This document shows, piece by piece, positions 4,736 to 41,534 of a stretch of 64,000 nucleotides of DNA; position 1 is the first letter of the stretch; each line of letters starts with the position of its first letter. The notes beneath the pieces were generated by a model that was not told the DNA's origin, did no database searches, and saw only the letters and a program-made list of their open reading frames with translations. Both the position numbers and the translations under genes were made by a program. The stretch spans positions 36,689-100,688 of the forward strand of contig CAZVBE010000002.1 in assembly GCA_964625335.1 (NCBI GenBank), in the 5' to 3' direction. The stretch is from an uncultured Clostridium sp. (GTDB taxonomy: Bacteria > Bacillota > Clostridia > Ch29).

Positions 4736-4985
4736 AAAATTAATAGTTCAGGAAAGACAGTGAAGGGAAGTAGTAATTCGATTCCGTTTCCACAGAAAGA
4801 AAGCCCGCGGCTGAAAGGCTTTTGGAACAGGGCGAATGAAGCAGTCCCGGAGTTGCAGTATCGAAATGAGAGTAGATGCTGCCGGATGTATCCGTTATAT
4901 ATTACAAGAGGCCGTTTTTAGGCAATTAGGGTGGTACCGCGGATTAGTCCCCGTCCCTGACACACGTCAGAGACGGGGTTTTTAT
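4736..4985 (+). promoter_or_regulatory. T-box leader RNA (tRNA-Ala responsive) with terminator
   Basis: Conserved T-box sequence AATTAGGGTGGTACCGCGG at 4924-4942. It is followed by the terminator CCCCGTCCCTGACACACGTCAGAGACGGGG TTTTT (4948-4985). The leader lies upstream of alaS, as in other Firmicutes. Confidence 0.8.
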
Positions 4986-25032: not shown

Positions 25033-25116
25033 GCATGAAAAAGGCAAACCTGACGAAAGTCAGGGACGCAAAGCTGCGAGTCTACGGTAATCTTACTACG
25101 ACAGTCGGGCTGCCAT
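25033..25116 (+). promoter_or_regulatory. c-di-GMP-I (GEMM) riboswitch aptamer
   Basis: GGCAAACC-TGAC-GAAA-GTCA-GGGACGCAAAGC..CGGGCTGCC matches the GEMM-I core. That core is GGCAAACC, a P2 stem with GAAA tetraloop, GGGACGCAAAGC, and a 3' G-rich closing strand. Compare the V. cholerae Vc2 segment GGGCAAACCAUUCGAAAGAGUGGGACGCAAAGCC. Confidence 0.75.
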
Positions 25117-25142
25117 AAGACATAATACATTAGTTTATGGCT

Positions 25143-38874: not shown

Positions 38875-39041
38875 TTTTGACCATTAAAAAGGCCGTAGTA
38901 TTCCAGCGGATTAAAAACTTAAAAAGAAGGGTTGACTCTCCGGTTAGGGGAGAGAGTAGACTTGATGTATCCGGAGAAAGTGAGGCAAGTAATATGTATC
39001 GCATTGGCCTGTTTTCAAAGATTTCAAAGACTACCGTTTTA

Positions 39042-39072
39042 CAAAACCACACCCTAAATAGTGTGGTTTTTT
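39042..39072 (+). terminator. intrinsic terminator after the activase gene
   Basis: AAAACCACAC-cctaaata-GTGTGGTTTTTT. Confidence 0.7.
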
Positions 39073-39181
39073 GTTATATGGCGGTGCATGTAATTGATAT
39101 TGATTGTTATACCGGGGCCCTGTGCCCGGTACTTAACCATAAGAATTTTATTGTCACCGGCTGTCTTTTTGACTTAGTCTA

Positions 39182-39237
39182 TTGACATGCGGCATAGAAA
39201 GTTATATATTTATAACATAAAGTTATAAATATATAAC
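39182..39237 (+). promoter_or_regulatory. promoter with overlapping inverted-repeat operator (GTTATATATTTATAAC / GTTATAAATATATAAC)
   Basis: TTGACA (39182-87), 17 nt, TATATT. Two 16-mers that are mutual reverse complements (39201-39216 and 39222-39237) cover the -10 and +1 region. Confidence 0.55.
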
Positions 39238-39242
39238 GGGAG

Positions 39243-39572
39243 ATGGTTAAATTGAAGAACAAAATTAGTTTGTTGGGGTTGTTTGGTTTTCTGGGGTTAT
39301 TGGGGCTTACAACCCAAAATCCTGGCTTTTACGGGTTTTTTGGTTTTTTTGGTTTTTTCGGGTTTGCGAAGGTTTTGCCGGATGAAATGTTCAGGCTTAA
39401 TGTCAACAAAGCGTCCAGAAACGCTTTTTTTACAGGATTAGTATTGTACCCGGCAGTTGTGGTTATAGGAGCATTTACTTCCATTTCTGCAGCTTACGCT
39501 TTTGGGTTCGCAATAAACTTTGCCGTTCAAATTCTAGTGTTCAGCATATCTTTATCAATATATGAAAGATAG
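39243..39572 (+). CDS. small polytopic membrane protein with (GFF)n repeat
   Basis: 109 aa with at least 3 hydrophobic segments. Residues 28-41 read [14 protein letters not shown], encoded by three tandem 9-bp GG(T)TTTTTT units. Confidence 0.55.
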
Positions 39573-39583
39573 GTGACAGGTTG

Positions 39584-39787
39584 ATGAAAATGATAACAAA
39601 AATAAAGGAGTACAGAGCCAAAAACAACATGACGCAGGAGAATTTGGCGGCTATTGCCGGGGTCAGACGGGAAACCATAGTACACCTGGAAAACGGAAGG
39701 TATAATCCTTCCCTTAAGCTTGCTTTTGATATAGCAAAGGCGCTTAATACAACGATTGAAGAACTATTTAGTTTTGTAGAAGAATAA
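39584..39787 (+). CDS. YozG-like XRE-family HTH transcriptional regulator
   Basis: [47 protein letters not shown] matches the short Cro/C1-type YozG pattern. Confidence 0.75.
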
Positions 39788-39817
39788 GTAATAACTAAAC
39801 GTTTTATATTGCACTGA

Positions 39818-40786
39818 TTGTTGACTGCTGCTTCAGTTTTGTTATTGGGAGCATCACTGGTTGTTATTCTAGTTACGATAAAATTTGCAGGAGACAAAAG
39901 ACTTGAAGAAAAATCCTGGAAAGAAAACAAACCCGAAAAAATTGAAAATCCGGGTAGCTTTAAGGATCTGAGAATACTACCATTAATTGATTATTACACA
40001 GATAATGATGACTTGGAAGGTGAGCCGGGGGTAGCCTATTTAATCAGTGCGGATAATAAAAGGATTCTTTTTGATGTGGGGTATAATCCAGCAAATGAAC
40101 ACCCGTCACCGCTCTTGGGGAATATGGGTAAGCTGGGCATAGAAACGACCGACATTGACGGTATTGTAATATCTCACAAACATGTTGATCATGTGGGCGG
40201 AATTAAGGCGGTAAGAAATAATACTTTTTTGATATCCGGGGAGGATATTGACCTGAATGGCGTGAAAGCCTTTGTGCCGGGGAAAATGTCTCATTTAACT
40301 GCGGAAATAGAGGTTACGGAAAAGCCAAAGAAAATAGCCATGGGTATTGCAACCATTGGAACTATAAACAGAGCTCTCTGGCTGATGGGGCTTACGACAG
40401 AGCAGGCACTGGCAGTAAATGTAGAAGGCAAAGGGCTTGTACTGATTGTAGGATGCGGTCATCAGAGAATAGAAAGAATTATCAAGAGAACGCAGGAGAT
40501 ACTTGACATACCGATTTACGGGGTGATAGGGGGGCTCCACTATCCAGTCCAGGCTTCAAGGATGAAGTTTGATATGCAAAGAATGCTGGGTACCGGCAAA
40601 CTGCCCTGGCAGAGGATAAAAAGAGACGAAGTGCAAGTAAGCATCGATGAATTAAAAAAGCTTGACCTAAAGCTTGTAGGATTATCGGCCCACGACAGTT
40701 GTGATTGGTCTCTGACAAAGTTCAGGGATGAATTTAAGGATAAGTATACGGATATTGTTGTAGGTAAGGAGATAGATATTTATTAA
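39818..40786 (+). CDS. membrane-anchored MBL-fold metallo-hydrolase
   Basis: N-terminal TM helix, then an MBL fold with HKHVDHVGG (HxHxDH) plus a downstream His and Asp. The start is weak (TTG, no SD). Confidence 0.6.
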   Translation: MLTAASVLLLGASLVVILVTIKFAGDKRLEEKSWKENKPEKIENPGSFKDLRILPLIDYYTDNDDLEGEPGVAYLISADNKRILFDVGYNPANEHPSPLLGNMGKLGIETTDIDGIVISHKHVDHVGGIKAVRNNTFLISGEDIDLNGVKAFVPGKMSHLTAEIEVTEKPKKIAMGIATIGTINRALWLMGLTTEQALAVNVEGKGLVLIVGCGHQRIERIIKRTQEILDIPIYGVIGGLHYPVQASRMKFDMQRMLGTGKLPWQRIKRDEVQVSIDELKKLDLKLVGLSAHDSCDWSLTKFRDEFKDKYTDIVVGKEIDIY

Positions 40787-40821
40787 TATGTCGGGTAAAA
40801 TAGTATAAAAGTAAAATATAT

Positions 40822-40852
40822 TTGACATAGTATCAAGTATATGATACTATGT
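40822..40852 (+). promoter_or_regulatory. promoter overlapping a perfect palindrome ACATAGTATC-N8-GATACTATGT
   Basis: TTGACA at 40822-27. A 10-bp inverted repeat with an 8-bp spacer lies at 40825-40852, between the -35 and -10. Confidence 0.55.
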
Positions 40853-40885
40853 GTCTGAACCAAATGATAAAGACGGGGTGATATA

Positions 40886-41095
40886 TTGAGTAAAAATCTA
40901 AAGCTTAAATCGGCCCGGGCAGCCAAGGATATGTCACAAAAGGATGTTGCCAATGCCGTGGGAGTGACAAGACAAACCATAAATGCGATAGAAAATGGAG
41001 ATTATAACCCGTCCATTAACTTATGTATCGCCATTTGCAAAGCACTGGACAAAACGCTGAATGATATTTTCTGGGAGGATGATGTCAATGAATAA
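40886..41095 (+). CDS. YozG-like XRE-family HTH transcriptional regulator
   Basis: MSQKDVANAVGVTRQTINAIENGDYNPSINLCIAICKALDKTLNDIF. TTG start after GGGGTGA. Confidence 0.75.
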   Translation: MSKNLKLKSARAAKDMSQKDVANAVGVTRQTINAIENGDYNPSINLCIAICKALDKTLNDIFWEDDVNE

Positions 41096-41534
41096 AAAGG
41101 GCTTGGATGAAATGCAGCTTCAAAGGAAGTACAAAATTGGGAACCAGGGTTTCGTGATGCTTTTATATCTTTTATTGCTCGATACGGGGCTTTACGGTTT
41201 TGGATTTAGATGGATCAGTTATCCCGCCAATGTCATGATTATTCTGACCCTTTGCTCGGGTATATATGTTGTTCGTTTGATATCTGGCAATGCTTTCGTG
41301 GGACCCTTTGCCAAAAATGAAAAGCCGGTATTAAAAGCTGTTCTTACAGCTTTATGTTCGGTTTCTGTTGCGGCGGTTATCATAGTCTTGTTAAAAAACG
41401 CAGGTTTCAGTAACGCTGGTCAGATTGATGACATGAGTGCGCCGATACTATTTATTACCGCAGCCACAGGGTTAATCATTGCGGCTGTGACAGGTGTCAT
41501 AAAAAGAAAACAGAATAGAGACGATGGGAAATAA
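41088..41534 (+). CDS. small polytopic membrane protein overlapping the regulator gene end
   Basis: About 148 aa with 4 hydrophobic helices. ATG 41088 follows GGGAGGA and overlaps the last codons of the HTH gene. Confidence 0.55.
   Translation: MNKKGLDEMQLQRKYKIGNQGFVMLLYLLLLDTGLYGFGFRWISYPANVMIILTLCSGIYVVRLISGNAFVGPFAKNEKPVLKAVLTALCSVSVAAVIIVLLKNAGFSNAGQIDDMSAPILFITAATGLIIAAVTGVIKRKQNRDDGK

Follow-up and report, generated by a model that had tools for sequence, protein, structure and literature searches.

A stretch of 64,000 nucleotides from an uncultured Clostridium sp. (assembly GCA_964625335.1, contig CAZVBE010000002.1; the whole stretch is called the window here) carries five genes between positions 39243 and 41534, every one of them on the plus strand in the open reading frame listing. 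Two pairs, each made up of a small helix-turn-helix (HTH) repressor of the XRE type and a small membrane protein, flank an exported metal-dependent hydrolase of the metallo-β-lactamase (MBL) fold; the pairs are unrelated to each other although they are alike in build. The genes, promoters, and palindromes listed in an earlier note on this DNA were all found in the sequence. Our favored explanation, held with moderate confidence, is that the locus contains two independent, insulated, autorepressed modules, in each of which a repressor would work with a membrane relay, as in AyrR/AyrA and CylR2/CylR1. Within this statement, we are more confident of autorepression, and less confident of the relay step, than of the whole. 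The evidence comprises gene content, promoter and palindrome sequences, pairwise linkage, the conservation and specificity of the operators, and homology to CylR2.

The first pair is formed by a membrane protein of the DUF3796 family and the repressor HTH1. The reading frame of the membrane protein opens at 39243, and the TTG codon at 39252 is likely to be its true start, because this position agrees with the N termini of the homologues and with the JGI gene call; the resulting protein (39252-39572, plus strand) has 106 amino acids. It matched PF12676 with 53.8 bits (cutoff, 24.8), with residues 6-108 aligned to positions 1-112 of the 120-position model, and 340 homologues were found, which are named "DUF3796 domain-containing protein" and belong to a family of modest size (442 clusters at 50% identity). 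The AlphaFold2 model is a compact four-helix bundle with a predicted local distance difference test (pLDDT) score of 92.8, and no structural relatives of it were found in the PDB (best E value, 3.9). Every third residue of transmembrane helices 1 and 2 (TM1 and TM2) is a glycine in the alignment, and D44-E45 is invariant; according to the alignment and the model, a long helix opens at this Asp-Glu pair and leads into TM3 as a cytoplasmic extension. HTH1 (39584-39787, plus strand, 67 amino acids) is a single-domain XRE repressor of the CylR2 type that falls in Pfam HTH_3, and its best match among solved structures was CylR2 itself (1utx; E = 3e-11, residues 4-65). The recognition helix of its family, GVRRETI(V/G)HLE, is invariant apart from the V/G position.

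One genome per species was scanned with the DUF3796 alignment, which yielded 16 loci from Clostridia, Syntrophomonas, Lachnospiraceae, Romboutsia, Chloroflexota, Dehalococcoidia, Aminicenantes, and one metagenome-assembled genome (MAG) labeled as Woesearchaeota. A small HTH gene directly followed the DUF3796 gene in all 16, either overlapping it or lying a few nucleotides away. Most of the encoded proteins had 64 to 77 amino acids, and each was much closer to HTH1 than to HTH2, the repressor of the second pair. The same order, DUF3796 and then an HTH1-type gene, was also present in loci L034 and L047. The pair of the Woesearchaeota-labeled MAG (L015, 3983-4527) lies on a 72-kb contig of an organism labeled as an archaeon, has a TGTTA...TAACA palindrome upstream, and could be due to lateral transfer or to a binning error. 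In a Lachnospiraceae MAG (L007, 3382-6427), two longer proteins with XRE domains (146 and 204 amino acids) and an Rce1-like protease flank the pair. Three proteins of 423 to 557 amino acids (P0466, P0483, and P0497) carry the DUF3796 domain at their C terminus; a search for informative (Rosetta-stone) fusions recognized no domain in their N-terminal parts, which are long, charged, and of low complexity, with repeated "CVIEEVDCK.SL" motifs.

The promoter of the first pair, P1 (39182-39210, plus strand), has a -35 hexamer TTGACA at 39182-39187, a 17-nucleotide spacer, and a -10 hexamer TATATT at 39205-39210, a match of 11/12 to the consensus; together with the promoter of the second pair (P2), it was the best plus-strand sigma-70-like site of the region. 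Two 16-mers, GTTATATATTTATAAC at 39201-39216 (candidate operator site 1a) and GTTATAAATATATAAC at 39222-39237 (candidate site 1b), are perfectly complementary across a gap of 5 nucleotides. They are also part of a 19-nucleotide direct repeat with a period of 21 bp, and therefore each is its own GTTATA-N4-TATAAC palindrome. Site 1a overlaps the -10 hexamer; site 1b lies 21 bp, or two helical turns, farther downstream, between the -10 hexamer and the ribosome-binding site. The 16-nucleotide repeat at P1 was the longest perfect short-range inverted repeat of the 64-kb window, and first-order Markov simulations gave 0.075 repeats with arms of at least 11 nucleotides per 64 kb and none of 16 nucleotides. 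The pattern of the palindrome at the second pair, described below, was expected 0.03 times in the window. A chance origin of the palindromes is excluded. The window contains another five perfect inverted repeats of short range, with arms measuring 11 to 15 nucleotides (at 2767, 3593, 7748, 23505, and 43947), a number far above the Markov expectation; presumably these are terminators or other operators.

Conservation of the P1 element was pronounced. Site 1a is near-identical in L003, L004, L005, L009, L016, L017, L034, and L047, and the block TTGACA-N14-15-(T)GTTATATATTTATAAC-ATAAA-GTTATAAATATATAAC was identical at 34 or more of 37 positions in eight loci and recognizable in Chloroflexota and Aminicenantes. 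Two loci (L003 and L017) have a third site another 21 bp downstream of site 1b. Among the 51 loci fetched, exact GTTATA-N4-TATAAC occurred only upstream of DUF3796 genes, and within the window it occurred only at P1; with regard to a wider regulon, no further exact copies of the operators of either pair were found within the 64 kb. Because the -10 hexamer lies within site 1a, occupancy of this site should block RNA polymerase, and the spacing of two helical turns suggests that dimers would bind cooperatively on one face of the DNA.

The second pair has the opposite order. HTH2 (40886-41095, plus strand, 69 amino acids) is again a single-domain XRE repressor of the CylR2 type, with CylR2 as its best solved-structure match (1utx; E = 9e-10, residues 7-64) and a recognition helix, GVTRQTINAIE, that is invariant in its family. 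The HTH1 and HTH2 subfamilies share about 40% identity and differ in their recognition helices, and both repressors contain little beyond the HTH_3 DNA-binding domain. The earlier note had called them YozG-like, a label that proved to be imprecise, since both scored 63 bits with HTH_3 versus 36 to 37 bits with HTH_26, and CylR2 is the closest solved relative. The start of the second membrane protein (41088-41534, plus strand, 148 amino acids, four predicted helices) overlaps the end of HTH2 by 8 nucleotides. Its score with PF20563 was 22.8 bits, below the cutoff of 27, over a full-length alignment (residues 1-134 on positions 1-135 of 163). It was nevertheless placed in the DUF6773 family because PF20563 is present in full-length homologues (50 to 81% identity over 98 to 100% of the length), for which NCBI and UniRef use the name DUF6773 family protein. 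The model of this protein has four helices and is of low confidence (pLDDT, 61). In the alignment L6-D7-E8 and Q10 are invariant, and a helix opens there and leads into TM1 as a cytoplasmic extension. Based on the positive-inside rule, D44-E45 of DUF3796 and D7-E8 of DUF6773 are both predicted to lie on the cytoplasmic, Lys/Arg-rich side of the membrane. An HTH2-type gene overlapped the DUF6773 start in all seven metagenome loci with upstream sequence and also in Syntrophomonadaceae, Serpentinicella, and Geosporobacter contigs, that is, in 10 of 10 informative contexts, and the neighbors of these pairs were unrelated from locus to locus. The proposal of two modules, each with an XRE regulator and a small membrane protein, was thus borne out, with each membrane family tied to its own HTH subfamily.

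The promoter P2 (40822-40850, plus strand) matched the consensus at 10/12 positions, with TTGACA at 40822-40827, a 17-nucleotide spacer, and an extended -10 element TGaTACTAT at 40842-40850; the -35 and extended -10 elements are kept in relatives. A perfect palindrome of 11 plus 11 nucleotides, ACATAGTATCA-N6-TGATACTATGT (arms at 40825-40835 and 40842-40852), spans the interval from -35 to -10 and is specific to this genome. What the HTH2 family keeps, besides the extended -10 element, is a quasi-symmetric block over the -35 hexamer, ATGTAAtATATAtTTGACAT, also written GTAAnATATAnTTGACA. Its copy in the window, GTAAAATATATTTGACA (40811-40827), overlaps the -35 hexamer and reaches upstream of it, and column conservation over 11 loci makes it the best candidate for a shared HTH2 operator. 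A degenerate pattern for this block, which was built from the same loci on which it was scored, matched only HTH2 promoters among the 51 loci and occurred once in the window, versus 0.01 times expected. Thus, of the two operators that had been proposed, the one at module 1 held up, being conserved across phyla, but the palindrome between -35 and -10 at module 2 did not, since it is not kept in relatives despite their invariant recognition helix and a different element over the -35 hexamer is. The -35 element rather than the palindrome is more likely to be the operator of the HTH2 family because it is conserved, because the AyrR operator likewise overlaps a -35 hexamer, and because the cyl promoter region of Enterococcus faecalis has a comparable palindrome; the palindrome specific to the window may serve as an extra or a reinforced site. 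Predicted operators, either palindromes or conserved elements with symmetry, overlap both P1 and P2. Separate autoregulation of each module, as the earlier note had suggested, is the natural reading of recognition helices that differ and are invariant within each family and of upstream elements that also differ.

The third component of the locus is the hydrolase (39818-40786, plus strand, 322 amino acids), which has an N-terminal hydrophobic anchor, an intact HxHxDH motif, and a match of 42 bits to Pfam Lactamase_B. Its metal-ligand residues (H120, H122, D124, H125, H215, H241, H292, and D293) are invariant in 15 homologues. The window protein is 52 to 74% identical to its homologues over 92 to 100% of its length, and the anchor and metal-ligand motifs are common to all; the JGI label for this membrane-anchored family is methanopterin-pathway synthase. 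The gene starts 30 nucleotides past the stop codon of HTH1. Since no promoter-like or terminator-like site was found in this gap, P1 probably drives the MBL gene as well, in this genome only.

The same-strand orientation of the genes, their tight packing, and the lack of any terminator-like site between 39070 and 41534 would agree with one five-gene signaling or immunity cassette, as envisaged in the earlier note, in which the MBL protein would serve as the shared effector of both pairs. The comparison with relatives argued otherwise. In the nearest relative, L047, which is from the same sample series and has a DUF3796 protein 87% identical to that of the window, the order is glycyl-radical enzyme, activase, methyltransferase, DUF3796, HTH1, beta-eliminating lyase, flavin mononucleotide (FMN)-binding protein, CotF, DNA methyltransferase, and PcsB-like protein; this is the window locus minus MBL, HTH2, and DUF6773. 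In L002 (DUF3796 78% identical), HTH1 likewise runs straight into the lyase without MBL and the second pair, so that the two nearest relatives that share the flanking genes of the window carry DUF3796-HTH1 alone. Neither this MBL nor a DUF6773 gene was found within 4 kb in any of the 16 DUF3796 loci. Because of this synteny and the unlinked contexts of the homologues, the block of approximately 1.9 kb that comprises MBL, HTH2, and DUF6773 is a local insertion or deletion difference; in L002, the intergenic DNA was too divergent for the breakpoints to be placed in the alignment.

The contexts of the hydrolase pointed in the same direction. A PaaX-like regulator stood beside MBL homologues in all five distinct contexts, together with an Rce1-like (CPBP) protease in four of them and a protein with two transmembrane helices in the fifth, whereas the window MBL gene lacks both the PaaX-like and the CPBP genes and lies behind an XRE/DUF3796 pair instead. 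The homologues of L030, L031, L032/L034, and L035 belong to this conserved but uncharacterized PaaX-like operon. In L034, the MBL operon and a DUF3796-HTH pair are 4.3 kb apart and on opposite strands. In Syntrophomonadaceae (L039 to L043, 1650-3444; an abundant lineage listed in 290 collection blocks), an MBL-fold gene directly precedes HTH2-DUF6773, which would favor a link between the hydrolase and the second pair, but that protein is a member of another subfamily, which is cytoplasmic (only 26% identity over 76 residues), and the linkage was rejected. MBL-fold neighbors of HTH2-DUF6773 were seen in two of about 12 contexts, were of different subfamilies, and may be a coincidence. A five-gene cassette was rejected on the basis of synteny and of the contexts of 16 DUF3796, about 12 DUF6773, and five MBL loci. 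We consider it very unlikely; judged from these comparisons, the arrangement looks like a local accident and not a unit.

The two pairs resemble several known systems. In Staphylococcus aureus, the XRE protein AyrR binds a palindrome that overlaps its own -35 hexamer (verified operator, TTTGACAAATATAGTTGTCAAA) and represses its own operon (PMC4542188). Relay of the inducing membrane signal depends on the membrane protein AyrA, of family DUF3169, and one AyrA point mutant is constitutively derepressed (PMC4542188, PMC5727409); AyrA carries a conserved D-E(a/g)E loop motif (PMC5727409). Its authors proposed AyrRA as a general two-protein unit from membrane to transcription that is found without ayrBC too (PMC4542188, PMC5727409). 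Like AyrRA, the window pairs have a small XRE gene beside a dedicated polytopic membrane protein and an acidic motif in the membrane partner, and the position of the AyrR palindrome over the -35 hexamer is that of the conserved HTH2 element. The gene order of ayrRA, with the HTH gene before the membrane protein gene, is that of module 2 and is reversed in module 1. AyrA has six transmembrane helices, in contrast to the four-helix partners of 106 and 148 amino acids in the window; neither of these had a DUF3169 match in Pfam, and no ayrBC-like ABC transporter genes were found after either pair. In L003 (2719-4533), an AyrR-like HTH gene (81 amino acids) and a DUF3169/AyrA-family gene (E = 4.6e-43) lie divergently beside the DUF3796-HTH pair, and different XRE-membrane modules therefore cluster in another genome too.

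In E. faecalis, CylR1 is needed for signaling to CylR2 at the cytolysin operon (PMC3709268). Both window repressors are full-length homologues of CylR2, and the HTH2 helix GVTRQTINAIE is close to VSRQTINGIE of CylR2. The order cylR1-cylR2, in which the gene for a small membrane protein immediately precedes the HTH gene, is that of module 1. Inspection of the cyl promoter region revealed palindromes that include TTGACAA half-sites (TTGTCAAGTG/CACTTGACAA). CylR1 from an E. faecalis plasmid has 94 amino acids and three predicted transmembrane helices, with KKDER just before TM2, and belongs to no Pfam family. The cylR genes run divergently from the operon that they control, whereas the pair itself is the only sure target in the window, and no lanthipeptide genes, which would have marked a cytolysin-type operon, were found near the window pairs. 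A third system, the YoaS-YozG operon of Bacillota (DUF2975 plus a Cro/C1-like HTH), has sequence-diverse upstream inverted repeats that were read as autoregulatory operators (bioRxiv 10.64898/2026.09.15.751765). The likeness consists of a conserved operon of a small membrane protein and a small HTH with inverted repeats upstream; the differences are the DUF2975 partner, the HTH_26 type of the regulator as opposed to the better fit of the window HTHs to HTH_3/CylR2, and the conserved rather than diverse operator of DUF3796. DUF3796 and DUF2975 had both been put forward in the earlier note as families for the window membrane proteins; the former was right for the first protein, and the latter had no Pfam match in either. 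In LytTR systems of Streptococcus mutans (HdrRM and BrsRM), a DNA-binding protein is encoded together with a small membrane protein, and the latter governs the activity of the former without phosphotransfer. They share the concept with the window pairs, but their fold is LytTR and not XRE, and there is no sequence relationship.

We propose that the 65- to 70-amino-acid XRE protein of each module would bind a symmetric site over its own promoter and shut the operon off. The repressor and its dedicated membrane partner would be made in fixed proportion, because their genes abut or overlap. The membrane partner would inform the repressor of a cue from the membrane or from outside the cell and thereby lift repression, possibly by using its own invariant membrane-proximal Asp-Glu helix to capture or inactivate the repressor on the cytoplasmic side. 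The modules would be insulated from each other by their different recognition helices and operators, and the exported hydrolase is probably an opportunistic output of module 1 in this genome. The reading as two modules is favored by homology to CylR2, strict pairing, coupled translation, promoter-overlapping candidate operators matched to invariant recognition helices, the lack of a sensor domain in the HTH proteins, and the AyrRA-type neighbor in L003. A broader version, in which DUF3796, DUF6773, DUF3169 (AyrA), CylR1, and similar proteins would be divergent versions of one device whose Asp-Glu helix reversibly captures a CylR2-type mini-repressor, is offered tentatively and is on balance doubtful. 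A common origin of these acidic-motif membrane proteins is hypothetical, as profile comparisons align the motifs at levels far from significance.

Several observations weigh against the two-module explanation and were considered together. In hhalign comparisons, DUF3796 and DUF6773 were not significantly related (probability of at most 2%; only the DE[RM] motif aligned), CylR1 was related to neither (0.2% with DUF3796 and 1.6% with DUF6773; only a short acidic motif aligned), and DUF3169 had no significant sequence similarity to either family. The published mechanisms of AyrA and CylR1 are themselves not settled, and no published function was found in the literature for K06897, COG1237, or 7DCK or, as bears on the explanation itself, for DUF3796 or DUF6773. 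At P2, the palindrome, which is the most operator-like site of the second pair, was not kept as a palindrome in 10 related loci, and the conserved HTH2 -35 element might in part act as a promoter UP-element and not as a binding site. Finally, the pairs mostly stand alone with variable neighbors, which leaves the output of such a switch undefined and means that the membrane protein could itself be the controlled product. We considered the possibility that the membrane protein is a regulated cargo or effector, with a stress-protective, transport-related, or peptide-immunity role, that is kept off by an autorepressor answering some other cue. Since no gene downstream is conserved, the membrane protein and the repressor are the only products common to all pairs, and the glycine-striped TM1-TM2 hairpin and the compact, confidently modeled DUF3796 bundle could belong to an effector. 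Such a role is unlikely in our estimation, though far from negligible: an HTH protein of 65 to 69 amino acids has no room for a ligand-sensing domain, so some partner must supply the input; the invariant residues are predicted to lie at the cytoplasmic face, near where the repressor would be, and not in the membrane or outside; and in the two systems that have been studied, genetic evidence shows that signaling needs the membrane partner (PMC5727409, PMC3709268).

A toxin-antitoxin-like or abortive-infection module, with a small membrane-damaging toxin and an XRE protein acting as antitoxin and autorepressor, would also be made up of small, overlapping, and probably autoregulated genes with a patchy distribution, and DUF6773 weakly matched a family of phage holins, below the threshold (E = 0.0044). 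Type II antitoxins typically carry an extra toxin-binding domain, but the window HTHs consist of the DNA-binding domain only, without such an extension. In Clostridioides difficile, a DUF3796 gene and its adjacent HTH gene are reported as variable cargo of a Tn6189-like transposon (PMC11983580), which would fit a mobile module, yet the window locus is in an ordinary chromosomal context that is syntenic with relatives. No relatives were found among 2.9 million viral contigs or 72,556 plasmids, and the membrane proteins matched no PADLOC or PHROG family. An origin from phage, plasmid, or defense systems was rejected on these grounds, the earlier suggestion of an immunity or defense role found no evidence in the same searches, and a toxin-antitoxin module is accordingly regarded as highly improbable.

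The surroundings of the locus include a glycyl-radical enzyme and its activase, a beta-eliminating lyase, and an FMN-binding protein. Between the activase and P1 lies a non-coding stretch of about 300 nucleotides (38875-39180) that contains a terminator-like hairpin at 39043-39070; the only RNA element detected in it was a sub-threshold rimP-leader match (E = 0.02). ENA and JGI call an open reading frame of 104 amino acids in this stretch, which has no Pfam match and may be spurious, and L047 carries its methyltransferase gene at the corresponding position. Elsewhere in the window, a c-di-GMP-I-GGC riboswitch (25034-25118, 75.5 bits) and a T-box leader (4751-4961, 124 bits) passed the Rfam gathering thresholds.

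Pairs of a small XRE repressor and a small membrane protein are common in the genomes of Gram-positive bacteria and anaerobes. To our knowledge, only AyrRA and CylR12 among such pairs have been studied, and the relay mechanism is known for neither. The present analysis adds a strict partner rule and family-specific recognition helices for two families without an assigned function and, for DUF3796, an operator and promoter kept nearly base for base across phyla. The candidate operator of module 2 was corrected, and the hydrolase and the two pairs proved to be neighbors by local insertion or deletion and not as a conserved system. Direct testing of binding, repression, and relay thereby becomes possible. 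If DUF3796, DUF6773, AyrA, and CylR1 were indeed versions of one device, they would represent a phosphorylation-free route from membrane to DNA with a logic like that of anti-sigma factors, and DUF3796, whose 37-bp operator hardly varies, would offer an unusually clean and portable system in which to work out the mechanism.

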